From a virus (lineage: Duplodnaviria; Caudoviricetes), in IMG/VR virus record IMGVR_UViG_3300032322_001005, positions 1-61,603 of that record: 61,603 nucleotides of DNA; one strand, given 5' to 3'. The notes beneath the pieces are model-generated. The model saw only the letters and a program-made list of their open reading frames with translations, was not told the origin of the DNA and made no database searches. The position numbers and the translations under genes were made by a program. The first letter of the stretch is position 1. Each line of letters starts with the position of its first letter. Below, piece after piece: positions 1 through 61,603 of the stretch.

Positions 1-558
<558 letters not shown>

Positions 559-26038: not shown

Positions 26039-26853
26039 AGTTGTATAAATTCCCGTATCCACTCCGAGTATCCCATCGTTCCCTCGCATCCACGTCTTGC
26101 GTCGATAACAAGATGCTTTTCCACAAAGTTTCGCATGGAATCAACTCGTTGTTTTATTTCACTTTCTGTCATGTTTTGTAGATGTTTCACAATATCGTTC
26201 ATGTTCGTGTTGTCCAAGTTGAATCTCGGGGAGAAATCCAACTCTTGACCGAACGGCATCGTCCAGTCATCGAGACGAACTGGTATCGCTCCTAGCAACA
26301 TGGATTCAAATAGCCGCATAGAACTCGGGCCGTTCCCTCTGGGACAAAGCGAGAATACGGAATCTTTAAGTTCGTTCGCATACGCTTCGGCTAGTTGAGG
26401 TCTGCGCTCTGCTGGTGTTTTCCACCAATCAATCCACGTCAGCCGAATGCCGTCCACCTGCATTCTGTGGCGGTTGTGCCAAGTCTGTCTGTGTCCTCGA
26501 AAGCTGATCTTTGTATTGCGTTTGCGGTTATCGAAATCTCCGCGCAAGTAGTTTGGGATGAACCTATCGTATTCGTAAGGAATGTTGAACCCGCAATTCG
26601 TTCCGAAGATGTATCCGTAGGGGACAAACGCTGGAGCTTGGTCGCCCGTGATGATAGCGATAACTCGCTTGTTCAGATTGCTGATCCTGCCCAAGTCTTC
26701 CGTAACCTCGTGGCTATCTCCTACTGTGTGATACCAAATGAAATCCGCCTCACTCAAGTTCTGGACGACCTCGATATTCGGGTTGTTGCCCATGAACCCT
26801 TTGTAGCCAAAGTGGTGTATAGATGTATGTAGATGTGGAAGTGTAATCTTCAC
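26035..26853 (-). CDS. exostosin-family (GT47) glycosyltransferase
   Basis: SFRG...SVFSLCPRGNGPSSMRLFESMLLGAIPV; GTG start overlapping the upstream stop. Confidence 0.8.
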   Translation of the reverse strand: MKITLPHLHTSIHHFGYKGFMGNNPNIEVVQNLSEADFIWYHTVGDSHEVTEDLGRISNLNKRVIAIITGDQAPAFVPYGYIFGTNCGFNIPYEYDRFIPNYLRGDFDNRKRNTKISFRGHRQTWHNRHRMQVDGIRLTWIDWWKTPAERRPQLAEAYANELKDSVFSLCPRGNGPSSMRLFESMLLGAIPVRLDDWTMPFGQELDFSPRFNLDNTNMNDIVKHLQNMTESEIKQRVDSMRNFVEKHLVIDARRGCEGTMGYSEWIREFIQL

Positions 26854-28526: not shown

Positions 28527-29152
28527 AACCCCTCCCGCTTCCAGCAGTGCGTAATTTGCCTAAAGTCGTTTTTGAGTTCATCATTTAGCCCGTTGTGTTG
28601 CACGTCGAGGGGAACGTGAACAGCGGACTTTAGCTCACAGGAGCATACAAGGCAAGCACCGAGAGCATAATCGTTCTTGGTTTTTCTGTCGCCTAGAACT
28701 CCGTGAATAAGCTTCATCACTCCTCCCATACACGCACCGCAGGAGAATTGGAGCGTAACGTTGTTCGGGCATCCCGCACAGATGTTCGCCCTGCGCTCTG
28801 CTTCCTCTTGCGAGACGAATGCAGCCCTGCCGTTCAAGACCTGCATCGCCCACGACTTGATCATATTCAAGAACGACAGCACAGCCTGCAACGAAAGCTT
28901 CCGGCGAACCACCTTGTCCAGCGAGACGGGATTGCAGAGCTTTCCCCACCCATTCTGGATGCACATCTCCGAGATTAACTCGTCCTCCCAGTCTCCCGTC
29001 AGAACGATATTGTTTGCCAAGCAATGATTCACATACGCTTTGATGAATGCTCGGTAATCATAATGTTTGAGAAGCAGTCCTGTAATAGGATGCTTGTAGC
29101 GCCACTCACCGGGGGGACACGTGGCCTTGTCCGTGTAGCGATATTGAACCAT
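28523..29152 (-). CDS. Cys-rich metal-binding protein
   Basis: RRANICAGCP, CGAC, CLVCSC, CW. Confidence 0.7.
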   Translation of the reverse strand: MVQYRYTDKATCPPGEWRYKHPITGLLLKHYDYRAFIKAYVNHCLANNIVLTGDWEDELISEMCIQNGWGKLCNPVSLDKVVRRKLSLQAVLSFLNMIKSWAMQVLNGRAAFVSQEEAERRANICAGCPNNVTLQFSCGACMGGVMKLIHGVLGDRKTKNDYALGACLVCSCELKSAVHVPLDVQHNGLNDELKNDFRQITHCWKREGL

Positions 29153-35100: not shown

Positions 35101-36768
35101 ATTTACTGGAACTTCATACTTTTCAGCGGTGGCGAACGGCCTGAATACCGTCACCCCATCTTCAACAGATATTGCTCCGCGCATTCCGTTGAATACGAAT
35201 GTGTCTTTGTCTCTGATTGATTCGGCTATGGTTCTTTGCGGAGCGGCAAGCTCTTCTGGAGCGGCAGGCGTAATGGGTGCGGCAGGTGCTGCTGGCTGCG
35301 TAACAGCCGCAACTGCGGGAGCTGCCTCTTCTACGGGTGGGACTGTAATCGGCGTGGGTGCTACCCCTGCACGGAACTCGGCAAGTGCGTCCAGCCCAGC
35401 TTGAGCGAATGCACGGGTATCCGCGTCTTCGCTTTCGAGTTCTTCGCGGAAGCCCCGCTCGGTCTGGGCGATAGACTCCGGCGACATTTTGGCGAAGGTT
35501 GTTTTGAACTCTTCTTTGGCGGGAACCTCGTATACCGTGGGCTTGGGTGCAAACTTCTCGCGCTCTTGCGCAAGTTCGGTTTCTGTCTGTTCGTTGGTCT
35601 GTTTCTCTTGCTGCAACGCATCCTTTGCTGAAGTAACCGTAACTGCCTGTGCAGTAAGGGGAGCGTTATTGTTTTCCAAGTTTGACGCAACCTTCGCGGC
35701 CTCTTGAAGTTGACGTTGTTTTCTACGCTCGGCAAATCCTTGTTGCACTTTACCGATTGCGATTTCCGCAGCACCCGGCCCGACCTCGCCAACGATTTCA
35801 GCAAACACATCCTTTGGTCTAATTTCTTCGCCAGCAGCAAGCGATCCAGCAACTTCACCACCGCCACCCAGAGCGGCTTGAATCGCTGTTTCTGCGGCGA
35901 CTTCACGCACTGGCGTCTTAAACGCAGCCTTGGTGATTTTAGCCACCTTACCGCCGATACCAGCGGATAGTGCATCAAACGCAGCGACAGGAACGCCTCG
36001 CTTGAGTGCTTTGTCTTTTGCCTCGTCAACCAGCTTTTGGTTGGAAAAGAATTCGGTGATGCTGTCTGGATTGTTTATGTCCATTCCTGCATTCTGTAGT
36101 TCCTCAAGCATCTTGCCGCCGTATTCGGTAGCCAGCGAACCAGCAAATGTTCCTGCAATCTGACCACCCAAGAATCCAGCGGGTGCCCCAATTACTGTAG
36201 GTGCGCCAATAGCAGCGCCAACCGTTCCAGCGGCAAGACCAGTGCCCAATGCTGGAAGATTTCCAGAAAGACCCTCTGCGACGATATTTGTCGTAACCTC
36301 AAACGGATTGGTGACAAACGCCTTTACCGCATCCATTCCTTCGGCATCCTGATACGCCTTGTAGTCGGGCGATACCTCTCGTGCCTTTTTTTCAAATTCC
36401 AACTTAGAGATTTCTTTTGCTTCCTCTGGAGTTACGCCTCCGACTGTTTTGATCGCTTGTTGGGATGAGGCAAAAGCGTTCTGTGCCGCGTTGGCGATTC
36501 CTTCAAATACACCAACCTCTGGCTTTAGCTTCCTTTTGGAAAGTTGACCAAAATCAGCAAACTCTTCCTCGTCGCCATACTCTTTGGCTTTCTGATTATA
36601 CCATCCTGTAAACCCAGAAGCGAACTCCTCGTCACGATACAGTCCTTGCTGCATGGCGCGGTCAACCGCAGTCCTGCTCCACTTGCCAAAGTAATCTTTC
36701 TTCTTTGCCGTGTCTAAAGACTGAAATTCAGGATCGGATTCTACTTCTTTCCAAGTCGGAAACCTCAT
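29152..36768 (-). CDS. giant internal virion/DNA-ejection protein (polyvalent type) with a zincin HExxH domain
   Basis: About 2540 aa; Gly/Ala-rich hydrophobic N-terminal segment; AHELGH at 32974-32988; helical C-terminus; likely start MRFPTW at 36768. Confidence 0.75.
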   Translation of the reverse strand: MRFPTWKEVESDPEFQSLDTAKKKDYFGKWSRTAVDRAMQQGLYRDEEFASGFTGWYNQKAKEYGDEEEFADFGQLSKRKLKPEVGVFEGIANAAQNAFASSQQAIKTVGGVTPEEAKEISKLEFEKKAREVSPDYKAYQDAEGMDAVKAFVTNPFEVTTNIVAEGLSGNLPALGTGLAAGTVGAAIGAPTVIGAPAGFLGGQIAGTFAGSLATEYGGKMLEELQNAGMDINNPDSITEFFSNQKLVDEAKDKALKRGVPVAAFDALSAGIGGKVAKITKAAFKTPVREVAAETAIQAALGGGGEVAGSLAAGEEIRPKDVFAEIVGEVGPGAAEIAIGKVQQGFAERRKQRQLQEAAKVASNLENNNAPLTAQAVTVTSAKDALQQEKQTNEQTETELAQEREKFAPKPTVYEVPAKEEFKTTFAKMSPESIAQTERGFREELESEDADTRAFAQAGLDALAEFRAGVAPTPITVPPVEEAAPAVAAVTQPAAPAAPITPAAPEELAAPQRTIAESIRDKDTFVFNGMRGAISVEDGVTVFRPFATAEKYEVPVNPNQPISEIEGVEWVRKGQTRQAPAEPALPQVASVIESKPQVTEEEIAATEDDFEIPQALIEIENSPTLNAIADIFDVGESKLVKEGKRSVKISSTPEFYTQISPEQIEVANRQIDTALRVIDRLPISEEQKQALAEPYLLIDQDITNYESNPKYQQYKSSLRREVRPSGEAVAFPETISEVESGVQELERRERAAQPAAAAPQPVAAEPITSADAQVINNLRSVAENTAKREQISALSAAGLVDIIKGQPVINQDGEAILSRAQAPLPRLTPAERVAEIQAAPAPAPAPVAPAVTTPPAPEAAPEGIAVGNRIKLGKSPQTYVVEKVIPQTATERDLGEQYYSVKNERTGEVQVVEKNDVKPVKAKGVRRMAIQPQAIKPRTQEEQAAFDKASSNRVMARNPQLAVAAVRMKNKEITVDEYANLVGALDPFVAKGPDPIPTDAKIKQYIQSNKIDQVGLLDKNGNSRLQEGSEYEFRIDIPTYNKSTEAGDTVYAITAHLPVADDSKKIGDVVAFTGIAKVTNPRFMTRNMREGGALTIAMGAGKFRLATVKGNYEPIAELPADINDPNVWTEVGYNPIRSSQFIDVRSKRTVVGGDEAIMVGSRVFVKNPKTEARPTGIIGPDQRYMAVEPSPVQESNRYTYEQILVAAKKFFGGKAPANLTIVNDSTDPDYRFKAGYNLETGQIILNQAYLSKEDNIADNIAHELGHFVYGDPEVQAAFKEFWNALSPEQQAQADDIIRRHYSEESQSVQMEENQVRAFGTLIAENRIAPKWERFVNAVKAVLNRLVGTKFRLTDRGAQAVLSSAIKRFQSGERIIREMDAGIFRMAAEPEAAVEAEPTVEPAAEAPQKKPRPTTIQRLIEATTGVKRKRDLLTINEKTALKDQLKLGAKKRRLDAAQQKEFVKDLTAQLREETIRGRVKAPQLRAIVNKAMQVRFDNDASILSFLNYANKVIDNANYDRDVSDAKKAISSAKNLAKQKDIPAPVKDVLKEFAGINPREINNPGEFAAVLTEYMKGYGPVTAEDYVVIPDAEMQSYLNDLYTEIDATRQEAERQLYLRALSQELGREGITEDEAVDLLDMSEEEFTSMIEARKQDARDERRVKRAEALEAAINKISEEAQIALVNYKNPNPTDDTTEILDDMKRLNLSQLDVGARKEFIRAANSILVNNYFFGAQKFSATAKGQMGAAEAANDPNQIKRNEAMFNFLNSFLGERTGRALNLSVQSVADTFRNIAGKNGAPRLLVQMGMARLSKGTARANKINAEISDGIRERYLQIEDETKQKISDKQGMFSMGVAGNLIQIDPDETEAEGIQRIRKLIEEDIAVKERSPSRSDRESVPFIKKALDEVYADSVQGILENLKRTHIANYEALIFLKDQVLPEYKPMLKEHDELFNNQTDNYNNPNYLPIRYRQVGSKVKPPDKVVITTGKDVSKPKQAANSIKRKKVTVLPKDSVIDYNLTKNVLNSLSDQISKANTNAAWQQIIAFLDSPDAEKAVGGAENLDFLNRRLAVLSNALARTYDGDGGSAIANTIANVTRRFGIGLALGGYGQFFKQYPSQMATTLANVGDPALIAESTRDLSSEGAMSLLRQYSIGERGEIAGGTKWINQTEGNYGKIERFVEDGRWVVVSDAVERLNNVWLYALKKSDFLAAGSGWLSYYRKYLQDKGVEFTGWENESRLNAESDPIRLEAAMYAEQMIDMYQGSSDPTRMAELSQRGNNGYANLFKAIFMPFYSFVLQERLRMFSDARDAIFGDSDQRKAAAKGLSGTIAGMITFNAARRFLLPAVYGLGASTIYALLGVDMDEPDEEKQKEEANLIWRKFRTELFSNIVLGGFPEIFESKAIDSINYMQYIIESQIENENALDDSGEVMPFDKYMKDRAFLYRYTGKGSGVNLGMLEIMPGQFAELSDRVKELSSQELADTLTPEERRVMFVAGVSELLYTMRLNDTDVARMIRQMNKDVIEQGKEREKAEKRLQNLYK

Positions 36769-36812
36769 AGCGGTCAACTATACAGCAATGGTTATTGTTT
36801 CCAAGAACTTTA

Positions 36813-38876: not shown

Positions 38877-39953
38877 CTAATCCACGGAGATGGCTACTAT
38901 GCGTCCCCTTTGGAATGAAATGTTTGTTGTGCCAGAATGGTTTGCCACAAACAATGCGATCTCGTCGTTGTTCGCTAGGCTGACGATCCAATTCGTTACG
39001 AGCTTTGCGAAGTTGTTTGAACTTGTATTTGAGCGGCACTCTGTCTCTGGAATGGTTGTCCCGTTTTTAGCCAACCGGACACCGAGGAGTTGGTTATTTC
39101 CAGCGGATGCGTCCATGCTGGCAAATACTTTGACCACCCTTGTCTCTCCAGAGGTGTTCTTGATCGCAAAGGCATCCGTTGTTCCCAAGACAATCCCGCT
39201 TGCTGTGGACGAGTCTAGGGTCGCTGTAAGCCCCGTTGTCTTGTAAACATCCTGCGTGAGGCCGGAGATCGTCCCGCTGTCCATCTTGGATACCTGCCCA
39301 CGGATTGAAGTAATAGCCCCCGTCTTGATAGAGCCTGCGTTGTTGTAGTCCACGAACACATCGTCTCCGCTTGCACGGAAGGCTACAGCACCGCGAGGGA
39401 GGGTTCCGACCGCTTCCGATCCTGCCGTAGCACCTCCGTCTGCCAGAGCCGTGGAACCGCTTGCAGTTGTAAGAGCCGCCATCCCTGTAGAGTCAGTGCG
39501 AATCGCCCCGTTTCTAGTAGACGGCCCAGACCAATACCCGAACTCGGATGTATTCGCTACGGTTGTTTTTGCAAAGTATCCGAACGCAGAAGAGCTTGCA
39601 CCGCCGCCGTAACATCCGTATCCGAATGCGCTTGAGCGAGTGCCGTAGGCCCAGTTTTGAAAACCAAATGCAGAAGAATAAAAACTTGAAGATTTATTTT
39701 CGCAACCAAAAGCAGATGAATAGTTTCCACTTGCAATATTTATAAACCCAAACGCACTATCAACATCTGTAGTTGCCTGATTGCCAACGCCAATTGCAGA
39801 ACACCCTTCTCCGAGAGAAGTATTATTTACTCCAACTGCAATAGACTCTGTATTGCTTGCTACACAACCAACTCCGGCAGCGAACGCATCTGACCCCGTA
39901 GCGGCCTGCCCCGTCCCACCTTTAGCGATTGGTAATGGAATTGAAATAGGCAT
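38877..39953 (-). CDS. fibre with YadA-head-like repeats
   Basis: LPIAKGGTG; 14-aa SSAFG repeats. Confidence 0.7.
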   Translation of the reverse strand: MPISIPLPIAKGGTGQAATGSDAFAAGVGCVASNTESIAVGVNNTSLGEGCSAIGVGNQATTDVDSAFGFINIASGNYSSAFGCENKSSSFYSSAFGFQNWAYGTRSSAFGYGCYGGGASSSAFGYFAKTTVANTSEFGYWSGPSTRNGAIRTDSTGMAALTTASGSTALADGGATAGSEAVGTLPRGAVAFRASGDDVFVDYNNAGSIKTGAITSIRGQVSKMDSGTISGLTQDVYKTTGLTATLDSSTASGIVLGTTDAFAIKNTSGETRVVKVFASMDASAGNNQLLGVRLAKNGTTIPETECRSNTSSNNFAKLVTNWIVSLANNDEIALFVANHSGTTNISFQRGRIVAISVD

Positions 39954-48158: not shown

Positions 48159-48170
48159 AATTTATTGTGT

Positions 48171-48617
48171 ATGAGTGTAAAAGTTCTGTCGGAGGTATTC
48201 GACAAAAGCCTTACGAGCGGCAATGCGAGGCTTGTGCTTCTCGCGTTGGCTGACTGTGCAAGCGAAGATGGGGCATGCTGGCCTTCGCTGCGGAAACTGA
48301 AAAAGAAATCAGGCGTATCTGAAGAAACAGTTCGCAAGTATCTCCACGCTTTTGAGGCAATCGGGCTTATCTCTTCTGAAGAGCGATATGATGTTGGAGG
48401 AAGGCGAACATCCAACGTCTATACAATCAACCTCGAAATGCTCGGAAGGGATTCGCCGGAGCATAAAACCTTGTATTCTGTCATACCGAAAAGCAAAAGG
48501 CGGGGGAGGGGTAGGTATGAACCAGTTCAGAGGGGGGTAGGTATGAACATGTTCATAGGGGGTAGGTATGAACCAGTTCATAGGGTCTATAATGAACCGT
48601 CTATAGAACCGTTATAA
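48171..48617 (+). CDS. HTH (HTH_36-like) replication-initiator-like protein, short
   Basis: MSVKV...ARLVLLALAD.A...G.CWPS...SGVSE.TV...GLI...SNVY. Confidence 0.8.
   Translation: MSVKVLSEVFDKSLTSGNARLVLLALADCASEDGACWPSLRKLKKKSGVSEETVRKYLHAFEAIGLISSEERYDVGGRRTSNVYTINLEMLGRDSPEHKTLYSVIPKSKRRGRGRYEPVQRGVGMNMFIGGRYEPVHRVYNEPSIEPL
48508..48580. repeat. iterons (3 x GGGGTAGGTATGAACnnGTTCA)
   Basis: Period 25-26 bp; each copy has a TGAAC-nn-GTTCA palindrome. Confidence 0.8.
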
Positions 48618-48659
48618 AGAACCGTCATGTTGCTTTTGTTGTTTTGAAAGGATAATCGC

Positions 48660-50810: not shown

Positions 50811-52079
50811 ATGAACACCAACCTACCCGCCGATCTGGCGTCGGAGCAGGGATTCCTATGCTCCGTCATTACAAACCCGAAGATAATCGACAAGTCCGTT
50901 GACCGCGTAACCGAAGAGCATTTCACTTCCTTCGGCAACCGCGAAATCTGGAAGGCTACGTTAGCCCTGTGGCAAGAAAGGCGGGCCGTAGACCCGATTA
51001 CTGTAGCAGGAAGTCTTGAGAAGGCTGGCGTATTTGAAGAAGCTGGGGGGAAAGAGTATTTAACCCAAACCGTAGAGTATTGCCTTACGCCTTCGCATTG
51101 GAAAGAATACCTGCAAAATATCCACGAGTGCTTTGTTCGTAGAAAGATACACGCCGCAGCACAGAAGATGATCGAAGGTGCGCTCGACAAAGGAAAGAAG
51201 ATCGAAGAACTGCAAGAGAATGCGAGTAAGGATATTGTCTCGCTAAGTGCGACAAATGCCGAGAACCGTCACATATCGGCGGTTCTGAGCAATTGTATTA
51301 CGAGGTGGGAGGAGGCAGCAAACTCTGGAGGTGCGGTTAATCGCGGGCACGAGTCTGGGATCAGCAGGTGGGATCACGCGACCAGAGGATTCAGACCAAG
51401 AACCCTGCACGTTATTGCGGGTGCGGCTAAAGCAGGCAAGACTACTTCTGCCTTGCAGATGGTAACGAATCCAGCTTTCGAGAAAAACGTTCCTATTGCC
51501 TTGATCTCGATGGAGATGGGCGCGGAAGAACTGCTCGACAAGTATATCGCGCAGAAAGCCAAGGTGAATATCTCCGATCTACTGGACGGAAGGCTGGATC
51601 ATGGAGCGCACGAGAGGATGTCACAAGTTATCGCTAAATCTTCCAAACTACCAATTTACATCGCAGACGAGGCGTGTATGACAGTGACGCAATTCAAGGC
51701 GAGATGCAGGAGGCTCGTGTCCGAGAACAAGGTAGAGATCATCATGGTCGACTACGCCCAGTTGATGGAGGCATCCGGCGATCCCAAGAATAGAGAGCGC
51801 GAGGTGGCAGAGGTAAGCAGAACGGCGAAGATTCTCGCCAAAGAACTGAATGTCTGTATTGTCCTTCTGGCCCAGCTAAACGACAACGGAGCCGTCCGCG
51901 AGTCGAGGACATTCTACATGGACTGCGACTCTTTTACAAAAGTCCACAAAGACGAGGAGAATACAGACCCGTATGCTTATTGTCTAACAATAACCCACAA
52001 CCGACACGGAGCTACAACAATGGTTCCCGTCAGGTTCGTGAAGTCCCAAGCCAGATTTGAGGAGGCCAGTTATGAATAG
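50811..52079 (+). CDS. dnaB: DnaB-like replicative helicase
   Basis: N-terminal EQGFL domain; AGAAKAGKTT; ISMEM; VDYAQLM; LAQLN; NRHG. Confidence 0.9.
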   Translation: MNTNLPADLASEQGFLCSVITNPKIIDKSVDRVTEEHFTSFGNREIWKATLALWQERRAVDPITVAGSLEKAGVFEEAGGKEYLTQTVEYCLTPSHWKEYLQNIHECFVRRKIHAAAQKMIEGALDKGKKIEELQENASKDIVSLSATNAENRHISAVLSNCITRWEEAANSGGAVNRGHESGISRWDHATRGFRPRTLHVIAGAAKAGKTTSALQMVTNPAFEKNVPIALISMEMGAEELLDKYIAQKAKVNISDLLDGRLDHGAHERMSQVIAKSSKLPIYIADEACMTVTQFKARCRRLVSENKVEIIMVDYAQLMEASGDPKNREREVAEVSRTAKILAKELNVCIVLLAQLNDNGAVRESRTFYMDCDSFTKVHKDEENTDPYAYCLTITHNRHGATTMVPVRFVKSQARFEEASYE

Positions 52080-52994: not shown

Positions 52995-53215
52995 AAAAAG
53001 CGGCAAAATCTGCCCACCAGAGTCATACCCCCGAAGAGGGTGATTCAAATATCATACCCGAAAGCGAAAGTGCTGTAGAGACATTCCTCCAAATTATCGG
53101 TATGATTAAGCCGCATAAAACAGAGATCAACCTGATTTTCGAGCAGGACTTCCTCTACGAACTCGCGGAAGAAGTCAAAGAACTCGCGGAGTCCTCCAGA
53201 GCAATCCTCCGCTAG
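52991..53215 (+). CDS. hypothetical protein
   Basis: ATGA-coupled. Confidence 0.55.
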   Translation: MKKAAKSAHQSHTPEEGDSNIIPESESAVETFLQIIGMIKPHKTEINLIFEQDFLYELAEEVKELAESSRAILR

Positions 53216-53219
53216 GAAC

Positions 53220-54060
53220 ACACAGGTATATCAGGGATACCAAAAGCGAACCCTACACCGAACGGGTATAGAGTCGCAGAGAAGGGTAGGAATAGCAGTA
53301 GATCGGGTATACAGAAAAGCTTCGTAAAAGCCCGCTATTCGCGTTAGGGTAGCCAAACCGAGCAAAGTATCGGAAAGAAGAAGAAAACTCGCTGTAGAGG
53401 CTATAAACGCAAAAGAGAGGCTGGCTATACAGTGGGAGAGAGTCGTGTTTCGATAGGCAACAAATACACGAGTGGTGTCGCTATACAAGCAACGTAGTGA
53501 GTAACAAATAGTTAGGCGTATAGTATAGGCATAGATGTAGAGTTTGTGTAGAGATAATTTTTAATTTTTAATTTTGATTCGGGAATTTAAATTTTGATTT
53601 TCCCCTAGGTCGTTTTTTTACCCTGCGGCGCCGTGCCAAGTCCCCCTCCCCCTACCACGGGTGGCGTGTGGTGTGCTGCTGCCGCTCCGTCACTCCGCCC
53701 GCCGCTCTACCCTACCGCCCGCCCCGCTTGGCATGGTGCGGTGCCTCTCATGTGGTGCGGTGTGCGGTGCGGTGCCTGCCATGCTTGGCCTTGTGTGGTG
53801 CGCTGCCAGTCTCAACAATAGCGGCTGCCTTACCTTGTGCGATGGGCCGCGCTTGCCTAACCCGTTGATGCTGTGTCGCGCTACACTATAACATGATATA
53901 AACAGCAATAGTCGATAGCTGAACATTGCGCGAGGATGCCCGTAGAATGCGCGAAACGATTGGCAAGGGGTAGCATAGCGGGGCAAATTGCGATGCAATA
54001 GCGGGGCGATTAGCGCGAAGGAATAGGCAATGCGAGATGCTGGCCTGATATCACCGGAGC
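53220..54060. other. long non-coding region, candidate genome terminus/packaging region
   Basis: Purine-skewed segment, T-tracts at 53556-53619, C-run and a GT-rich low-complexity tract. Confidence 0.4.
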
Positions 54061-54079
54061 GAATCACCTTGCGCGAAGG

Positions 54080-54334
54080 TTGGCATGAAAGATGCTGCGC
54101 ATTTCCGCAAGGCTATGCAAAAGCGCAACTTGCAAAAGGCATGGCAAGAATTGCACGGAAAGCGGCAACCTTTGCCGGGTAAATCCTGCCTACCGGAAGA
54201 AATTGCCATTTCGGAAAGGTGTTGCGTTTGCGGAGCTTATGGCTTGGCATGGGAGATGCTGCGCAATTTCGTTGCGTAAGTGCTTGAAATTGCACCTTGC
54301 CATTGCCTTGGCAACACTTGGCATGGCGAATGCT
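54080..54334 (+). promoter_or_regulatory. three sigma54-type (-24/-12) promoter motifs TTGGCATG-N4-ATGCT
   Basis: 54080-54096, 54244-54260 and 54318-54334, all with GG-N10-GC spacing. Confidence 0.6.
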
Positions 54335-54386
54335 ATGTATTTTGCCAAGCGGGGGAACCCGTCAAACACCAAACCAAACCAAACCA

Positions 54387-54602
54387 ATGATCATCGAAAC
54401 CAAAGAACAGTTCGCAATATTCAGAATCCTTCAGCTTCGCGCCGCTCTCCGTTTGGAGTGTGCGGGAATGCGTCATTCAAGCGGAAGATCGGTTGCCAAG
54501 CTAATCAAGCAACAGTACGGATTTAAGGGGAGCAAGCAAGCCATACTGGAACAGCTTTGCGCACATATCGAAGCTATCAAGGCGGGGGAGGCTACCGCTT
54601 AA
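54387..54602 (+). CDS. early hypothetical protein
   Basis: MIIETKEQ...ALRLECAGM..S.GRS..K; (AAACC)n leader. Confidence 0.65.
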   Translation: MIIETKEQFAIFRILQLRAALRLECAGMRHSSGRSVAKLIKQQYGFKGSKQAILEQLCAHIEAIKAGEATA

Positions 54603-54649
54603 CCTTTCGGCGGGGGTTCTATCCCCTCGCCACCTAACCAATCAAAAAT

Positions 54650-54853
54650 ATGACAACCGAACAGATTCTTGAAATTTACCCCGGTCCGTGGAAGGTAGAA
54701 ACGAAAATAAAAAAAGACCGTGCTTGGGTAATTTTAACAGACTACAACGGGAACGACATTGCGGAGATTTATGGCGAAAAGGTTTCAGAAGCGCAAGCCC
54801 TCGCCACCTTGCTTTGCAAGCTCCCAGATGCCGTCACTCTCTCAACAATCTGA
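54650..54853 (+). CDS. early hypothetical protein
   Basis: PGPW...IAEI...P motif. Confidence 0.6.
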   Translation: MTTEQILEIYPGPWKVETKIKKDRAWVILTDYNGNDIAEIYGEKVSEAQALATLLCKLPDAVTLSTI

Positions 54854-54892
54854 ACCATGCGCACTTTCACTATCCACAAACAGAAACCTATT

Positions 54893-54988
54893 ATGAAACT
54901 TGCAAACAGGATCGAAATCTACACGCAACCGGAGGAAATTCCGGTTCGCGGAAATGCGCTGGCATCCGGTGACGATGCGGCGCTCTAA
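54893..54988 (+). pseudogene. short or truncated early ORF
   Basis: MKLANRIEIYTQPEEIPVRGNALASGDDAAL then stop; well-formed AC-rich leader. Confidence 0.35.
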
Positions 54989-55035
54989 TTTGTTCCCCCC
55001 GGAACGCCTAACTTAAACCAATAGATAAATACATA

Positions 55036-55314
55036 ATGAACCGCATCACTAAAAAAACACTTCAGGCCCGAATCGATACCATCAACTCTATCCTTGGCCT
55101 TCCGGCTACGCCTTACACCTTGCAAGAGGACGGGACGCGAGCTGTAAATCAAGGCGTCTTTATTCTTACCATGGCATATGGAGGATACGGCGTTGGAAAG
55201 ATGAGCGAAGAGGGCGGGACATGGAGCGAAATCTGGAATGGTCACATATCGGCGCGTGATGCTTATGAGCGCATTTCCGCATTCATTCGCGGCCTCACAT
55301 TCAAGACAACATGA
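55036..55314 (+). CDS. early hypothetical protein
   Basis: RITKKTL...IN...AYGGY...I.AFIRG. Confidence 0.65.
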   Translation: MNRITKKTLQARIDTINSILGLPATPYTLQEDGTRAVNQGVFILTMAYGGYGVGKMSEEGGTWSEIWNGHISARDAYERISAFIRGLTFKTT

Positions 55315-55511
55315 CAACGCCAAAAATTGACGCCGCAAAACATTTCGACCTGCACAAAAGCCTCATCCGCCTATCCGCATTACGCCTTGCCTTGGGTGAG
55401 GCACAAAAGCGGGAGGAATTCATAGACTGGCGCAAACTGGATCGCATTCTCGACAAGTGGCGGTTGCGGGACGCCTTCGCATTCTACTCCGCGCGGCCCG
55501 AAATGTTCTAA
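55311..55511 (+). CDS. early hypothetical protein
   Basis: ATGA-coupled. Confidence 0.55.
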   Translation: MTTPKIDAAKHFDLHKSLIRLSALRLALGEAQKREEFIDWRKLDRILDKWRLRDAFAFYSARPEMF

Positions 55512-55608
55512 CCTAACCCGGTGCGGGTTCCATCCCTCGCCTTTTATTGTCAAACAAGCAAACCAAAAAACGAACACAACACAAACAACTAAGGAGACTA
55601 AAGAAAAA

Positions 55609-55824
55609 ATGAACACAACACAACACATTACCCGTAGCGAAGGGATGCGATCCCGCTGCACTTGCGAGCATTGCAGAGAATCACGGCGGATTCGTTTAAA
55701 TGATTCCGCCCCCGATATGTTCGACGCCCTTCAAGCTGTCTGCGATGCCTACGGGGAACAGGATTCGCTACTAATGGCGCAAGTCAAAGCGGCACTTGAT
55801 AAAGCGAAAGGAGGCGCTAAATGA
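55609..55824 (+). CDS. early hypothetical protein
   Basis: CxCxxC; APDMFDAL...AALDKAKG. Confidence 0.6.
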   Translation: MNTTQHITRSEGMRSRCTCEHCRESRRIRLNDSAPDMFDALQAVCDAYGEQDSLLMAQVKAALDKAKGGAK

Positions 55825-55958
55825 AACCGCACAAAACACCGGAATGGATTCTTCAGACTAAATCAATCCGCCAAACACGGGAACGCAACGCAACTATACT
55901 TGTCGCGCTTTGCATCCTCACAATCTCATTCGCAATCGTCGCACTCATCGCAAAATGA
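55821..55958 (+). CDS. small membrane protein
   Basis: MKPHKTPEW...TILVALCILTISFAIVALIAK. Confidence 0.5.
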   Translation: MKPHKTPEWILQTKSIRQTRERNATILVALCILTISFAIVALIAK

Positions 55959-56140
55959 TTCACTTACACACACAAAACAAGAAGCTGACATTCGACACGC
56001 GAGCGGAAGCAGAAGCGTTCGCGGATTCGGAAGGGCTGGACGAAAACCTTTGCATTCTTCACGGGGACGGGCGTGTCCTGTCCTTCCGTAGAAAAGGGGA
56101 CTCAAAGTTCACCACGATCACGAAAAGGGAGGGAGAATGA
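55955..56140 (+). CDS. early hypothetical protein
   Basis: MIHLHTQ...FDTRAEAEAFA. Confidence 0.5.
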   Translation: MIHLHTQNKKLTFDTRAEAEAFADSEGLDENLCILHGDGRVLSFRRKGDSKFTTITKREGE

Positions 56141-56296
56141 AACCGCCAAGCGCAACGATTCATCAACTGCGGGCGATTCTCAAACTCAAAAAGCGGGTCG
56201 GGTTGCCTGCTGGCTACCTGTGGGAACTAAACAAAGCAGAAGCGGAGCGGGTCCTCCTGCTCCTGCGAATCCAAGCGAGACGAATAGCCAGATAGT

Positions 56297-56809
56297 CTAA
56301 GACTCCTCCAGCAACAAAGGCTCTCCGTTCTTCGGGATGGAGAGCCTTTCGCTTACAAGCTGGATTGCGATGTTCGTCTTGTTCTCCTCGTCGTTCAACT
56401 CCCCGGCTGCACGCATATCAAGTTCAATCGCCTTGAGTTTATCGGAGACTCGCGGCCCTTGCAGGGTTCTCCGTCCTTCCCCGTCCACCGAAAGCGCGAC
56501 ATAGGGTTTCGTTTCGTCAATCTCGTTGGGCTTGGCGCGGACTAACTCGGCGAGCATGGAACGCTTCTCAAGAATCGACATGACATTGTTAGCCCAAGCG
56601 GACTCGCGGAGTGTCTGCATATACTGCTGGACTCTGGGGCGTTCGCTGATTTTCTTTCCACGGAGATAGGAATAGCGAGGGCAGCCAGAAGGTTTATAAC
56701 CGGACTCGTTGTAGGCTTTCGCATAAGACATTCCAGCAACTAAATTGCGGGCAAAGGCCGTCTCGTAAGGCGTAAGCTCGTTCTCAAATCCTTTTTTTCG
56801 GCGTGGCAT
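56297..56809 (-). CDS. terS: terminase small subunit
   Basis: LTPYETAFA...GMS..KAY..SGY HTH; P.VQQY; DKLKAIEL. Confidence 0.75.
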   Translation of the reverse strand: MPRRKKGFENELTPYETAFARNLVAGMSYAKAYNESGYKPSGCPRYSYLRGKKISERPRVQQYMQTLRESAWANNVMSILEKRSMLAELVRAKPNEIDETKPYVALSVDGEGRRTLQGPRVSDKLKAIELDMRAAGELNDEENKTNIAIQLVSERLSIPKNGEPLLLEES

Positions 56810-56810
56810 A

Positions 56811-57359
56811 TTATTCGCAGGAGTAAATCTGGTTGTTCAATTTCAATTTCGGCAGCGGAATATCGGAAACAATAAAAGAACGATCCACAAATGCAACTCT
56901 GTTAGTTGGTTGGATTGTCAGCCTGTCGTTGTCGAGGCGGATGAAGAAAAACTCTTTGTCTTGTTCGGGGGTCATCGAATAGCCATCGAGAATATGCGCC
57001 GCGCTGAATAGATATTCCCCTCCGTAAATCTTGCCGTCGATCAGCACGGAGACTCGGAGGCCGGAGAGATGATCGTTTTCCAATAATGTGAACTCGAAAG
57101 CGTAGCAGTTCCAAAGTTGCGCCTGCGAAATTGTCCAACGCGTGTCGTTCTCGGGGGAGAAGGAGACTAAATGCGGCGGGATGTTGCGATATAGTGCCCC
57201 GCCTTCGCGCAGAATGACGTTAATTCCCCACGTTCTTGCTGGAATGGCAGTCACCCCTACCCAACAGACTTCGACCAATCCTCGTGGCTCCTCGTGCGTA
57301 AACGAGCTATCAATATAAATGTATTGATGCCTTGGTAGATGACCGATCTTTGTGAACAT
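56811..57359 (-). CDS. hypothetical phage protein
   Basis: GALYRNIP, QLWNCY, GEYLFS, IQPTNRV. Confidence 0.65.
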   Translation of the reverse strand: MFTKIGHLPRHQYIYIDSSFTHEEPRGLVEVCWVGVTAIPARTWGINVILREGGALYRNIPPHLVSFSPENDTRWTISQAQLWNCYAFEFTLLENDHLSGLRVSVLIDGKIYGGEYLFSAAHILDGYSMTPEQDKEFFFIRLDNDRLTIQPTNRVAFVDRSFIVSDIPLPKLKLNNQIYSCE

Positions 57360-57685
57360 TACTTGGAATCGTATTCTTGTCCGTCGTTAAAGTGATCTAT
57401 TCCAAAGTGTAGCGTGAGCCAAACGAACGGCTTTCCAGTATCCTCGTCCACGCCCTCTCGGAATCGTGCCGTGAACCCGCCGCCAGCGGAACCTTCGTGC
57501 TTCACCGCATTCTTGAGGTGACTACGGGCGTTCTTCTTAATCTCCCATAGTTCGGGGACTGCCTTCGGGTTTTCGGCTGTTGCCCATGTCCACTTGAGCG
57601 CGGTCATTATCTGATGGACTTTCTCAAACTCGAAATCGTCCATGATATTGTCGATCTGTTCTTGAATTGCTTCTTGCCTCGTCAC
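57359..57685 (-). CDS. hypothetical protein
   Basis: IMDDFEFEKVH.IM..L.WTW...GGF. Confidence 0.65.
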   Translation of the reverse strand: MTRQEAIQEQIDNIMDDFEFEKVHQIMTALKWTWATAENPKAVPELWEIKKNARSHLKNAVKHEGSAGGGFTARFREGVDEDTGKPFVWLTLHFGIDHFNDGQEYDSK

Positions 57686-57912
57686 AGGTTCCTCCTCGCC
57701 TTGATCTTGCGATACTCCAAAATCAAATCCTTGCCCGTCTGCGGAGAATGCTCCTGCAAAAATGCGGCGAATCGCTCGTTCATCTTCACAAGTTCAAAGA
57801 CAGTCCCGCGAAGGTTGTATTCCCTCTCTTCGCTCTTGCCCAAGAGTTTGCACTGCTCGTTTAGTTCTGTCTGAAGGGAACGAATCTCGTCCTCCTCTTC
57901 CATGAGGATCAT
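57682..57912 (-). CDS. coiled-coil hypothetical protein
   Basis: Coupled ORF. Confidence 0.55.
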   Translation of the reverse strand: MILMEEEDEIRSLQTELNEQCKLLGKSEEREYNLRGTVFELVKMNERFAAFLQEHSPQTGKDLILEYRKIKARRNL

Positions 57913-58139
57913 CGGTAGGAGGCAGCTTTCGCTGCGATCTTCTTGGGTTGCTTGACGAATTGTTTGCCCGCGCGATTGCCTTTAGCCTTCGCTCGGTTCG
58001 TAGCTGCTTTCTCTGAGGGACTAAGGGATTTCCACGCAGCCTTAGGGAGATAACGTTTCTTGCCCTTGGATGGCGACCCGTCAGAGGTTGTCCACTCCTG
58101 TTCCGTCCATCGCTTGAGAGATTGTTGCGGAGCTTTCAA
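57909..58139 (-). CDS. DUF5872-like protein, C-terminal half
   Basis: QQSLKRWTEQEWTT...RYLPKAAW..LS..EKAATNRAK. Confidence 0.6.
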   Translation of the reverse strand: MKAPQQSLKRWTEQEWTTSDGSPSKGKKRYLPKAAWKSLSPSEKAATNRAKAKGNRAGKQFVKQPKKIAAKAASYR

Positions 58140-58315
58140 TTTTTGTATCCTCCTCCAGCCTTTTTGTATTGAGAAGCAAGTAGTTGTGCCTTCCTCGCAC
58201 TCCACTCTCCGGGGTCGCCGCCTTTAGTTCCAGCCTTGATCTTGTTGAACAAGCGTTTCCTCATCGTTGGCTTGGTGTAGTTCCCAGCCGCGTTGACTTT
58301 GCTTTTTGCTTTCAA
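58136..58315 (-). CDS. DUF5872-like protein, N-terminal half (not in ORF track)
   Basis: NYTKPTMRKRLFNKIKAGTKGGDPGEWSARKAQLLASQYKKAGGGYK. Confidence 0.6.
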   Translation of the reverse strand: MKAKSKVNAAGNYTKPTMRKRLFNKIKAGTKGGDPGEWSARKAQLLASQYKKAGGGYKN

Positions 58316-58319
58316 GGGA

Positions 58320-58502
58320 CTATTTCTTTTTGACTCCAGCCGACCTGAGCGCGATGGCTACTGCTTGGCGACGGCTCTTGACGATTGGTGCCTTTTTCGG
58401 CCCCTTCGGGTTGACTCCGCCGTGCAGTTTACCTGCCTTGTATTCCCGCATGACGGTGGCGATTTTGTTTTGTTGTCCTTTTTTTGTTGTGGGCTTTTTC
58501 AT
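58320..58502 (-). CDS. small basic protein (DUF6496-like)
   Basis: KIATVMREYKAGKLH...VKSRRQAVAIAL. Confidence 0.65.
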   Translation of the reverse strand: MKKPTTKKGQQNKIATVMREYKAGKLHGGVNPKGPKKAPIVKSRRQAVAIALRSAGVKKK

Positions 58503-58503
58503 A

Positions 58504-58689
58504 TTAAGCGAAGTATTTGTTGCACATTCCTGCAATGTTGTTGATGTTTTCAAGGTGGAGTTTAGCCACCTTCTTTGGTTGTTTACGCTCCATACGAAGC
58601 GCAAAGTTCATGTCTTCAAGATACTTGATGCGTCGCTTAAGCGATTCAACTGTATCTGTCATCTGCTGCATGGTTTTTATTGCACTCAT
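58504..58689 (-). CDS. hypothetical protein
   Basis: MSAIKTMQQ... Confidence 0.5.
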   Translation of the reverse strand: MSAIKTMQQMTDTVESLKRRIKYLEDMNFALRMERKQPKKVAKLHLENINNIAGMCNKYFA

Positions 58690-58907
58690 TTTGTGTTCTC
58701 CTTGTCTTCTTGTTCTACGAATTCTATCTCTGAATAGCCGTCTGCTATACGCCATCCTACGTATATAAGCGCAAGGCATACGAGCGTCAGCCAGATGGGA
58801 AGCCACTGAATAGCGGCGAACAGGATGACTCCAGAGCCGCCGAATATGGAGACTAAGGCGAAGATCGCCAACGCCACATCTCCCCACGTTACTTCTTCGG
58901 GCCGCAT
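58686..58907 (-). CDS. two-TM membrane protein
   Basis: MRPEEVTWGD followed by hydrophobic helices. Confidence 0.55.
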   Translation of the reverse strand: MRPEEVTWGDVALAIFALVSIFGGSGVILFAAIQWLPIWLTLVCLALIYVGWRIADGYSEIEFVEQEDKENTK

Positions 58908-59176
58908 ATAATCTGTTCCATCCCTTCTGTTAGTGTTGCGAAGTATGTCGGCTCGTGCTTGGTGTCCATCAACTTCTCCAGCGCACGGACGAGGACTGCG
59001 CCGAGCTTGAGAATCTCGCGTGTCTCTTCGATACTCTTGACTGTTGACTCGCCAAAGTTTGTGCCAATCTCGTTCTCGTTCTTGTCCACGATGATCGCCC
59101 CGTTCTTTGCGAGAATGTCTTCGCACTCTTGAGCGAGGTCGAGCAGGTGGTTCCAGCGTTCGTTAAAGTATTTCAT
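58889..59176 (-). CDS. hypothetical protein
   Basis: Coupled ORF. Confidence 0.55.
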   Translation of the reverse strand: MKYFNERWNHLLDLAQECEDILAKNGAIIVDKNENEIGTNFGESTVKSIEETREILKLGAVLVRALEKLMDTKHEPTYFATLTEGMEQIICGPKK

Positions 59177-59427
59177 TGTAATTCGATTTTGCAGGAGACT
59201 ACGGGCGTTGGCTTGAGTTGCTTGACTTCTTGCACGATAACAAGTTGGCTAGACCAATCTGTATTCTCTCCGAGTTCGATTGAATCGCTGCAAGAGAACG
59301 TCTCTAAGCAATCTTCTGCGATCCATTTCTCTGCCGCTGCGACGGAATCAAACGGCCCCGTTGCCTCACGGCGTTGCTCGGAACAACATCCGTATTCCAA
59401 GTCTATTACCCAGTATTTGTTTTTCAT
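59173..59427 (-). CDS. hypothetical protein
   Basis: GPFDS..AAE.W motif. Confidence 0.55.
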   Translation of the reverse strand: MKNKYWVIDLEYGCCSEQRREATGPFDSVAAAEKWIAEDCLETFSCSDSIELGENTDWSSQLVIVQEVKQLKPTPVVSCKIELQ

Positions 59428-60452
59428 TTGATTATTTTCTCCAGAATTTCATTGGTTTGTTCGTCAAAGGTTTCTTCCTTCGCCATATCCGTGAGGAACT
59501 CGCGGAGTATGCCTTGGGTTTTGTCGGACAACTGGTGGAAACTTTTCACCAGTGCGACAGCGAAGTGGAACGAGGCTTGCCCTGCGTTACACATCGCACA
59601 CTTAGTAGCGATAATCAGAAGCTCTTCTGCGCCTCCGAATTCTTTAATCCAAGCGGTTGATGATTTATCCAGCTTTTGCAGAGGCTCTTTGCCTTTCAGC
59701 ATGCGGACGTGTGACCGAGCTTCGGCGCATGTCCAGCTTTCTCTACGCGCTTGATCTATCAGCGACTTGATCTGCTCGTTGTTTGTAGCTTCGTCCTCGC
59801 TGAACTTTGCGGTGGCGATCTCGACTGCTACTGTCGGGCTGATCTCGTGGCGCTGGTGTAATGGGATTCGCTGGGCTGTCCGGTGCCAGTTGGACACAGC
59901 AGAGTAGGACATCTTGAGACTGGCTGCGATCTGATAAACAACGTTCTCGTGCCCGAGGCGGATGAGGTTGCTGATTCCATCACCAGCAAGCCACATTCCC
60001 TTTGAAGACATGTCCACGCCCATACCAATAGCTGCGGCGTAGTCTTCAGGTGTAGGGATTGTCCCCTGCTTTGGGCGGAACTGCGTCATGAACTCACCGA
60101 AGTCGAAGCGTTCGGAGAGGCGCGAGTAACTGTTATCGAGTCGAGAGGTAAGCGCGGACTCAAGGATGGACTGCTCCGTGCCCTCTGCTTGTTTAACAAG
60201 TTCGACTGGTAGTTCTTCCAACTCGCCATCGGAGTATTTGATTAAGGCGCATGCTTCTTCAAGCAGCGCCCAGTGATTTTTCGGGGAGTCCTCGTCAATT
60301 TCATCCTCCCGCTCACAGCAAGCGATGAGTTTTAGAGCCGTTTTGATATCTGCCTTGTGCTTTATAGCAAGCATTTCGGCGAACTGCTGGCGAGATACCT
60401 CGCCTGTCGGGAGCTTAAAGGTGGCCCGTAACCTTGGTGTTTGTGTGTTCAT
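59424..60452 (-). CDS. HTH-containing protein (LmbU-like WxxGD plus HTH segment)
   Basis: MWLAGD...IAASLKMSYSAVSNW.R.A..IP..R. Confidence 0.5.
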   Translation of the reverse strand: MNTQTPRLRATFKLPTGEVSRQQFAEMLAIKHKADIKTALKLIACCEREDEIDEDSPKNHWALLEEACALIKYSDGELEELPVELVKQAEGTEQSILESALTSRLDNSYSRLSERFDFGEFMTQFRPKQGTIPTPEDYAAAIGMGVDMSSKGMWLAGDGISNLIRLGHENVVYQIAASLKMSYSAVSNWHRTAQRIPLHQRHEISPTVAVEIATAKFSEDEATNNEQIKSLIDQARRESWTCAEARSHVRMLKGKEPLQKLDKSSTAWIKEFGGAEELLIIATKCAMCNAGQASFHFAVALVKSFHQLSDKTQGILREFLTDMAKEETFDEQTNEILEKIIK

Positions 60453-60485
60453 CGAATTTCGTTGTAGCAAATGACGTGCCAAGTT

Positions 60486-60692
60486 CTATCCCACGTTAAT
60501 GTCACGCTCGTAGCCCTCCTTCTCTGCGCGGCCCTCAAGTGTGCAAATGATCTCGGATGAGAAACTTCTGCGATTCTCGGCGCAGGCTCGCTGGTAATGT
60601 TTGTATAGGGCGACTGGCATTTGGAACCCTACGTAGTGGGTAGGTTCTTGTAGCTTCTTAGCCACAGAGGTGTTTCTTTTTTTCACTGGCAT
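60486..60692 (-). CDS. Arc-like ribbon-helix-helix regulator
   Basis: VGFQMP..LY....A.ENRRSFSSEI..L. Confidence 0.65.
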   Translation of the reverse strand: MPVKKRNTSVAKKLQEPTHYVGFQMPVALYKHYQRACAENRRSFSSEIICTLEGRAEKEGYERDINVG

Positions 60693-60961
60693 GATTCGCA
60701 CTCCTCGTCCAAGTTGCATTGCGGCGTGATAACTTCGCTTGGGATATCGTCATCTTCCGCAAACTTGGGCTTTGCCTCAGGAACATTTGTCCCAGAGTCT
60801 TTTTCTTTTAAAAGGTTCTCGTTTATCTCCATAATCTTATATGAATAAGTTCCGGCTGGAATAGTATGAACCCAGAACTGGGCCTCGCCGTGGGTAGAGA
60901 ACCACTTTCCGTATGTCCACTCCGTCGAGTTGACGGGCTTTGCGAGTAACAAGTATCCCAT
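60683..60961 (-). CDS. hypothetical protein with CESCQ C-terminus
   Basis: Ends CNLDEECESCQ. Confidence 0.5.
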   Translation of the reverse strand: MGYLLLAKPVNSTEWTYGKWFSTHGEAQFWVHTIPAGTYSYKIMEINENLLKEKDSGTNVPEAKPKFAEDDDIPSEVITPQCNLDEECESCQ

Positions 60962-61010
60962 ATCTGATGTGCGGGACGGGATTAGGGGAGTCTCCCGCCC
61001 CGCTTGCCCC

Positions 61011-61235
61011 TCAGAAATCGTTGTCCGAATCGACTCGCTGTCCGTTCACGACAACTTTCGCCTCGCTAATCTTGAGCGAAAGGAATGTCGCGCCTTTCTG
61101 GCTGGTCTTCTTCCAGCCAGCGAGTGCGTAGTCTTTGCCGTCAACGTTGATGTTGCCGTCGTAGTCTGGTTGCTTCTCGTTCTTCTTGTTCTTCTTAACG
61201 AAGAGAACACCGCGATTTGTTTGGTCGAATGCCAT
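61011..61235 (-). CDS. small ssDNA-binding-like protein (DUF736-like)
   Basis: GVLF.K..K..KQPDY.G.I.V.G..Y.LAGW.K...FLSL; acidic DNDF tail. Confidence 0.65.
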   Translation of the reverse strand: MAFDQTNRGVLFVKKNKKNEKQPDYDGNINVDGKDYALAGWKKTSQKGATFLSLKISEAKVVVNGQRVDSDNDF

Positions 61236-61243
61236 TGTATTTG

Positions 61244-61603
61244 TTAGGGTTGTGCAACCGCACGATAGGCGATCACGTCTTGTTTGATTTTGGCGATCCC
61301 ATCCGCGAGGAATGCCGCCGAGGTTGTGTCTGACATGCGGAAGAAGTCGTTGGCTTTGGCAGGAACACGCTCGTCCTTCTGCCATTTGCTCGTTGCGAGG
61401 AACTCGTCTGGAGTAATGTCCTCCTGTATTAGCTGCTCGAAAAGTGCCTTGTGGTTCTCGCCGTTGAAGCGTTTGCCTGTAGCTTCTTTAGCTGGGGCTT
61501 CCGCTGTCTCTACCTTCGGGGCGGGTTTGGACGATTCTACGGGCTTTGTAGGCGCAGCATTAGGCTTTCCTTGGGGGCGTCCCATTGCCGCTTCTCCGTC
61601 ATC
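61244..61603 (-). CDS. erf: ERF-family ssDNA annealing protein, C-terminal part (5' truncated)
   Basis: Reading frame enters from the contig end as DDGEAAMGR, the ERF DDDG motif; upstream of the SSB-like gene. Confidence 0.55.
   Translation of the reverse strand, partial: DDGEAAMGRPQGKPNAAPTKPVESSKPAPKVETAEAPAKEATGKRFNGENHKALFEQLIQEDITPDEFLATSKWQKDERVPAKANDFFRMSDTTSAAFLADGIAKIKQDVIAYRAVAQP

Follow-up and report, generated by a model that had tools for sequence, protein, structure and literature searches.

Probable sigma-54-type promoter sites ahead of a block of small genes in a family of uncultured lake phages

The stretch of DNA that was analysed (the window) is an entire virus record from IMG/VR. 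It is linear, measures 61,603 bp and has a completeness of about 90%. Family matches were obtained for very few of its proteins: a DnaB helicase (50811-52079), an HTH_36 protein (48165-48617), an HNH protein, a dCMP deaminase, a lysin of the GH108/PG_binding_3 type, three methyltransferases, a GT47 glycosyltransferase and the C-terminus of a tail fibre. Virion and lysis genes, mostly on the minus strand, extend from 559 to 47955, and the replication genes occupy the plus strand between 48165 and 53215. A non-coding stretch of 1.1 kb (53216-54386) lies 3' of the replication genes. It is followed by small plus-strand ORFs (54387 to about 56300) that converge with minus-strand genes at 56297-61585. 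The features discussed below are these:

29152-36777, minus strand: 2541-aa ORF among virion genes, with Ala/Pro-rich linkers and HELGH near residue 1264
53556..53850, no strand assigned: direct repeats rich in AT (53556-53610), followed by low-complexity DNA that is C-rich and G/T-rich with a strand bias
53858..53870, minus strand: IHF-like string CATCAACGGGTTA, one mismatch to WATCAANNNNTTR
53880..54320, no strand assigned: putative regulatory region dense in TTGC/GCAA, with dyads and direct repeats
54080..54101, plus strand: P1, candidate promoter, -24/-12 element TTGGCATGAAAGATGCT plus extension GCGCA
54244..54265, plus strand: P2, candidate promoter, TTGGCATGGGAGATGCT plus extension GCGCA
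54277..54289, minus strand: IHF-like string TTTCAAGCACTTA, one mismatch to WATCAANNNNTTR
54318..54339, plus strand: P3, gene-proximal candidate promoter, TTGGCATGGCGAATGCT plus extension ATGTA
54349..54362, plus strand: stem-loop GCGGG-GGAA-CCCGT, predicted at the 5' end of the P3 transcript (RNAfold -8.6 kcal/mol, z -2.2)
54363..54386, plus strand: A/C-rich leader without Shine-Dalgarno sequence, caaacaccaaaccaaaccaaacca
54387..54602, plus strand: first ORF downstream of P3, 71 aa, no family match
54650-54853, 55036-55314, 55311-55511 and 55609-55824, plus strand: further small co-oriented ORFs, no family match
59424..60452, minus strand: conserved 342-aa protein, predicted target of P4
60466-60482, minus strand: P4, fourth core-consensus site, TTGGCACGTCATTTGCT, without the RTGYA extension

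No similarity to cultured phages was found for the DNA at 53500-55000. DnaB matches in cultured phages are at most 30% identical and the 771-aa protein found no match among them by tblastn; hence, no cultured relative is known. An Rfam search of 53200-54700 gave best E values of 0.39 and 0.46, far under the gathering scores. Among the sequencing runs listed for the window, no RNA run contains it; one DNA run contains it in full and may be its source, and small shares are present in other runs, whose label is lake water or simply metagenome. About 70 consecutive C residues open the record (window 1-70), probably an artefact of sequencing or assembly at the end of the contig.

The initial annotation had described three copies of TTGGCATG-N4-ATGCT with exact GG-N10-GC spacing and had read them as sigma-54-type promoters. 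The three copies are found at 54080-54096, 54244-54260 and 54318-54334, all on the plus strand and separated by 164 and 74 bp, and they are the sole copies without mismatch in the 61,603 bp; about 0.002 exact copies are expected by chance (calculated for 13 specified bases and two strands). ATGCT is directly followed by GCGCATTTCC in P1, GCGCAATTTC in P2 and ATGTATTTTGCC in P3, the first two being the extensions that had been noticed at the outset. P1-P3 differ by a single base from TGGCAC, having TGGCAT, and likewise from TTGCT, having ATGCT; both variants are common in the phage family. If these are sigma-54 promoters, transcription would begin about 12 nt past the GC doublet, with predicted starts near 54107 for P1, 54271 for P2, 54345 for P3 and 60455 for P4.

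When the strict pattern TGGCA[CT]-N5-[AT]TGC[AT] was used, five matches were found in the window. They include P4, which was absent from the initial list, and a match at 30478 (minus strand) that falls inside a gene, has no extension and is probably due to chance. In P1-P3 (GG at 54082-54083 and GC at 54094-54095 in P1) as well as in P4, the GG and GC doublets are exactly 10 bp apart, as they are in sigma-54 promoters.

The sites are conserved in relatives. Related loci (n = 27) were gathered via the DnaB protein (23 loci, 24-100% identity) and via the first small ORF (four loci); relatives of the 71-aa product of this ORF are 48-77% identical. The strict pattern matches in 13 of the 27 loci, with 30 sites that add to the five in the window. 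Among the 14 loci without a strict site, three have sites elsewhere in their whole records, outside the fetched stretch. The remaining site-less loci comprise numerous short fragments, two loci with a very distant DnaB, L003 (whose DnaB is near-identical and whose DNA downstream is different) and two loci with a first-ORF relative of 48% identity, in which another, palindromic element is found instead of the strict site. In L027, a 21-bp near-palindrome of the CTGATGGCA-TGG-TGCTATCAG type is seen at 2520-2545 and 2945-2970, where it takes the place of the -24/-12 motif some 30-40 nt ahead of two start codons. All five whole related records that were scanned contain sites (18 matches, compared with 0 for the backwards pattern); the DnaB of these relatives is only 52-75% identical.

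The spacing between the two elements is fixed. In the window and loci L002-L028 taken together (328,551 bp), TGGCAY-N5-WTGCW has 35 matches, while about 1.5 would be expected from the half-site counts (262 and 3,739). Spacers of N2, N3 and N4 yield two, zero and one matches, respectively; spacers of N6 to N8 yield none, and the reversed pattern yields none either. In L002 and L004, whose intergenic region is 82-84% identical to that of the window, P1 and P2 are kept and the P2 extension is GTGTA. The P3 site of these two loci varies at bases -15/-14 (GTGCT, ACGCT), with GG, GC and the extension unchanged. For a log-odds matrix, 36 sites of relatives served as the training set, with the window and L002-L004 left out; it gave scores of 27.7 bits for P1, 30.1 for P2 and 30.5 for P3; the next-best place in the window scored 13.1 bits, and the maximum in twenty shuffles was 19.3 bits. 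The matrix takes in the RTGYA extension, and P4 falls below its 12-bit listing threshold. Chance is thus excluded as the origin of the three sites P1-P3.

The anatomy of the motif was examined in 45 distinct family sites, including the window match at 30478 (minus strand), by counting bases at the positions left free in the search pattern. T precedes TGGCA in 33 of the 45 sites; C and T are equally frequent at +5, and positions +6 and +7 are R and G. The base before TGC is A in 37 sites and T in eight, and the base after TGC is T in 44 of 45. RTGYA comes after ATGCT, at about -10 to -6, and its G is present in 41 of 45. The spacer bases are free to vary. The family consensus can thus be written YTGGCAYRG-N3-ATGCT-RTGYA. 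To our knowledge, RTGYA is absent from the sigma-54 consensus, and its conservation could be a pointer to another reader. By base sequence, the first sixteen bases of the family consensus equal the sigma-54 consensus and the last five are specific to the phage family. The excerpts available of a published survey (PMC12316311) give the sigma-54 consensus as TGGCAC-N5-7-TTGCT and describe it as common across phyla.

The GCAT...ATGC symmetry of the window copies raised the question of a hairpin or dyad. Positions +5 and +11 do not covary among family sites (C-A 18, C-T 6, T-A 22, T-T 4). The symmetry is therefore incidental, and reading the motif as a hairpin or a dyad fails.

The placement of the sites resembles that of promoters. 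In G002, the one complete relative, of 67,020 bp with direct terminal repeats, all seven sites are intergenic and aimed at the next ORF, whose start lies 30-270 nt downstream; the gene-proximal site of each group is 30-63 nt away. In the window, P3 begins 68 nt ahead of the ATG at 54387 and is co-oriented with it. Many relatives have pairs of sites 53-55 bp apart, often with a third, divergent site about 100 bp upstream.

A hairpin lies a few nucleotides past the expected sigma-54 start in 20 of 28 family sites, each folded singly. The 20 hairpins have energies of -6.2 to -12.3 kcal/mol and z values of -1.8 to -5.7, and their stems vary by lineage (CGGGG/CCCCG, GCGGY/RCCGC, GAGGC/GCCTC, GGGA/TCCC). 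No hairpin was found at four internal G002 sites and two P4-type sites, and those of P1 and P2 are moderate. RNAalifold detected no hairpin in 11 P3-type leaders; MAFFT had misaligned two subgroups of them, and for this reason the leaders were folded one by one. Downstream of the family hairpins the leader is A/C-rich, and relatives have leaders similar to the one at 54363..54386.

In an inspection by eye of 45 ORF starts of the window, Shine-Dalgarno sequences were scarce and A/C-rich leaders were many. This scarcity fits hosts that use Shine-Dalgarno pairing little.

P4 has a different layout. The next gene has its ATG 13 nt past TGCT; L029 shows the same layout, the G005 counterpart also has its ATG 13 nt past TGCT, and the distance in G002 is within 1 nt of it. 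A nearly leaderless message is thus implied for the 342-aa protein. This protein is 85% and 63% identical to its counterparts in two relatives (G005 and G002), and its 33 homologues (48-98% identity) are confined to this phage family. A structural model (pLDDT 83.3) had Foldseek matches only to DNA-binding domains of ParB, Spo0J, Noc and SopB with E values of 0.24-0.5, which weakly suggests a ParB/Spo0J-like fold. A small ORF on the same strand (60486-60719) ends 3 nt before P4 and has, by eye, the look of a ribbon-helix-helix repressor; Pfam yielded no match to it at E <= 0.01, and G002 has a similarly sized ORF in the same place.

The DNA upstream of the sites is rich in repeated elements. 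The abundance of TTGC and GCAA half-sites remarked upon by the initial annotation is borne out by counting: 27 are found in 53880-54386, the maximum of the record, compared with 6.7 ± 3.2 per 507-bp window. TTGC-N10-GCAA dyads are present at 54130-54147, 54151-54168 and 54297-54314, and only the first is kept in L002 and L004. Two of the dyads are centred at about -132 and -111 from the predicted P2 start, and 23-bp direct repeats (53973-54017) lie at about -90 to -135 from the predicted P1 start. In ten chosen promoter regions of the family, several 6-mers are enriched 7-17-fold: ACTAGG (25 versus 1.5 expected), TAGGCA (21 versus 2.3) and GGCAAA (26 versus 3.8), the last two in 10/10 regions each. 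The DNA rich in TTGC/GCAA and TAGGCAA may hold putative sites for an activator or for a phage regulator. An examination by eye revealed no convincing site of the NtrC, NifA or KorB type. Several relatives have a TGCCA/TGGCA palindrome abutting the upstream promoter. The AT-rich repeats and the C-rich or G/T-rich DNA that precede the promoter region also do so in L010 (10390-10640; DnaB 61% identical).

IHF-like sites had been proposed to assist the promoters. The two strings are indeed at the positions reported; however, each has one mismatch to WATCAANNNNTTR, and matches with up to one mismatch occur at background frequency (63 in the window, about 1.0 per kb). Four such matches fall in 53400-54450, two of them in the AT-rich segment, and none of the five exact matches of the window lies there. 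In addition, WATCAANNNNTTR is the enterobacterial consensus and may not be that of the host. A role of IHF is therefore not upheld. The L002 counterpart of the string at 54277-54289 is TAAGTGGTTGATT, which, read by eye, fits WATCAANNNNTTR exactly.

A scan for sigma-70-like sites (hexamers 16-18 bp apart) found none that overlaps P1-P3, and three in 53200-56400 compared with 2.8 expected. One candidate, TGAACA-17-TAGAAT at 53920-53948, was discarded as its -10 box is lost in L002 and L004. In sequence, exact spacing, orientation and conservation throughout the family, the sites are as sigma-54 promoters would be expected to be; the IHF part of the initial claim is not upheld.

A relevant question is which factor reads the sites. 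The sigma-54 activator domain (PF00158) was not found in the six frames of the window or of five relatives, in agreement with the initial observation that the phage lacks an AAA+ activator. Among stop-to-stop frames of 80 codons or more, four contain a Walker A motif; two of these have a plausible function, a 605-aa terminase-like ORF and DnaB. Six-frame profile searches of five records including the phage detected neither the sigma-54 DNA-binding domain (PF04552) nor sigma-70 regions 2 and 4 (PF04542, PF08281); T7-like RNA polymerase (PF00940) had no match in the six frames of the five records, in a search that lacked a positive control. With no sigma factor, polymerase or activator domain found, the simplest reader would be host RNA polymerase with host sigma-54 and a host activator. 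This reading rests on the presence of rpoN in the host.

The leads to the host are conflicting. A DnaB scan of genome contigs retrieved a single cellular DnaB, 27% identical, from an Oligoflexia MAG. The endolysin leads to Verrucomicrobiota, and the GT47 protein to Nucleocytoviricota, Bacteroidota, Verrucomicrobiota, Actinomycetota and Cyanobacteriota. The C-terminal domain of the tail fibre (38877-39953, minus strand, residues 216-357) is 57-61% identical to that of the Synechococcus siphophages S-LBS1, S-CBS1 and S-CBS3, and 36% identical to that of the Verrucomicrobia phage P8625; this domain is common to phages of different phyla. No tRNA genes were found in the window. Cyanobacteria, as far as we know, lack sigma-54. 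The survey cited above reports, in the sections available, full-length RpoN in Bacteroidota, Verrucomicrobiota and Planctomycetota, including a freshwater Opitutia species, and sigma-54-dependent chaperone genes in Bacteroidota and Planctomycetota (PMC12316311). One speculation is that the chaperone link would offer a stress-linked activator.

From the sequence evidence, we consider it probable that P1, P2, P3 and P4 are promoters for host RNA polymerase carrying sigma-54 (RpoN), with a host activator opening them. The -24 contact of sigma-54 would be the GG of TGGCAY, and its -12 contact the GC of ATGCT. The transcript would carry the short stabilising hairpin first, then the A/C-rich leader without Shine-Dalgarno sequence, and then the small phage gene cluster. 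Promoters of the sigma-54 type stay silent as long as no ATP-driven activator opens them. As no AAA+ enhancer-binding protein is recognisable in the phage or its relatives, opening would depend either on a host activator or on something unconventional. In the former case, expression of the gene block, which may be early, would be tied to the signalling state of the host.

The resemblance to bacterial sigma-54 promoters such as glnAp2 (NtrC) and pspA (PspF) includes the TGGCAY-N5-WTGCW sequence with GG and GC 10 bp apart, the strict spacing, the location upstream of a gene and the presence of upstream DNA rich in repeats and dyads, found here at about -75 to -230 relative to P1 and about -110 to -130 relative to P2. 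Differences are that the sites belong to a phage genome without an activator gene, are arranged in tandem and have the extra RTGYA. Precedents in phages are scant: in the literature on phage sigma-54 promoters, Pseudomonas phage YuA (Yuavirus) was the only phage found with reported ones. Ceyssens et al. 2008 are said to have described -24/-12 promoters in YuA. In the first 50 kb of its GenBank entry (NC_010116), three promoter fragments are annotated as 'high activity, -24/-12 consensus'. The same stretch contains no strict TGGCAY-N5-WTGCW, and the GG-N10-GC candidates within the fragments match poorly. The available part of a study by ONT-cappable-seq presents YuA as dependent on sigma-70 and sigma-54, with one sigma-54-like promoter (PMC10914365). 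YuA is thus alike in being a virulent phage without an RNA polymerase of its own that is reported, in what that source makes accessible, to need both sigma factors. The YuA fragments lie among structural genes, at 38.4, 40.9 and 47.2 kb, whereas the sites described here lie in a module of small ORFs, are near-consensus, number 2-7 per genome and are kept across a family. A 2026 preprint, in the portion consulted, describes a protein of a T4-like phage whose fold resembles that of an activator and which lacks GAFTGA. A sigma-54 signal in a phage without its own activator is rare. The initial remark that such control would be unusual for a phage is fair, although the annotated YuA fragments mean that it is not without precedent.

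N4-like phages use hairpin-type early promoters that are read by a virion RNA polymerase. They are similar in having three repeated elements before small genes, and GCAT...ATGC is pairable in the TGGCAT variants. In contrast, the compensatory change that marks N4-type hairpins is not seen here, as the arms do not covary; no polymerase domain of N4 or T7 type was found, in a search without positive control, and the giant virion-type protein has no polymerase motif. A further possibility is that the sites serve an unrecognised phage RNA polymerase or sigma-like factor, and that they merely resemble -24/-12 elements. Since most proteins of the phage have no family match, a novel polymerase, sigma factor or activator is possible; the RTGYA extension is specific to the family; and a tail fibre like that of Synechococcus phages would allow a host without sigma-54. 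We regard this explanation as unlikely, however, because both elements and their exact spacing match sigma-54, a coincidence that would be very improbable. The profile searches described above argue against it as well. The 2541-aa ORF was considered as an N4-like or crAss-like virion polymerase and rejected: it has no PHROG, Pfam or PDB match and no motif of the D-x-D-G-D type, and its HELGH is instead an HExxH, metallopeptidase-like motif. Least probable of all is the view that the motifs are operators, partition-type binding sites or sigma-54 decoys, the last having been raised by the initial annotation. The region is certainly dense in repeated half-sites, and the phage has candidate DNA-binding proteins in the weakly ParB/Spo0J-like protein, the ORF that resembles a ribbon-helix-helix repressor by eye and the HTH_36 protein. 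Such roles are nevertheless hard to reconcile with an asymmetric motif without covarying arms that is always co-oriented with the next gene and the 5' hairpin at a fixed short distance, and that occurs in lone copies ahead of single genes in G002. The decoy idea, in particular, fits poorly with the 7/7 co-orientation in that genome.

Another explanation accepts the sites as sigma-54 promoters and has them opened by an unconventional, non-AAA+ phage factor acting via RTGYA or via TAGGCAA/TGCCA, so that no host signal would be needed. Sigma-54 holds the DNA closed just past the -12 box, and the conserved RTGYA lies directly past that box; the activator domain is missing from the phage and its relatives; and upstream of the promoters there are the enriched ACTAGG, TAGGCA and GGCAAA words and, in several relatives, the TGCCA/TGGCA palindrome. 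On the other side, we know of no natural sigma-54 system that is independent of an activator, the internal promoters of G002 have no long upstream regions, and the enriched words can be equally well explained as repressor sites. We thus find it improbable that sites of this kind are opened by such a factor, and just as improbable that this lineage of lake phages runs a gene block, probably its earliest, by an 'activator bypass' of sigma-54 that dispenses with the AAA+ ATPase. Reading of the sites by host sigma-54 with a host activator therefore remains our favoured interpretation.

If the gene block is under sigma-54 promoters, either its trigger has been handed to a signalling pathway of the host or a bypass has evolved: because such promoters are silent without an activator, the phage must cede the trigger to the host or circumvent the need for it. 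The signal is near-consensus, repeated and kept across a family of abundant, uncultured lake phages. It may hence provide a tractable system to study how the programme of a virus is coupled to the physiology of its host and, possibly, a route to new regulators of sigma-54. Since the consensus is common across phyla, a heterologous holoenzyme could be used for a first test in vitro.

Two other regions of the window deserve mention. At 48490-48620, direct repeats about 28 bp long (GGGGTAGGTATGAACCAGTTCATAGGGG type), three to four in number, overlap the 3' end of the HTH_36 ORF and adjoin its far side, and are followed by shorter AACCGT repeats; together with the ORF, they have the look of an iteron-type replication origin with its initiator. 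Within the virion gene region, a minus-strand block (23780-28526) contains the three methyltransferase genes, the GT47 (exostosin-type) glycosyltransferase gene and a gene for a 558-aa protein without assigned function, and may be a surface- or DNA-modification island.
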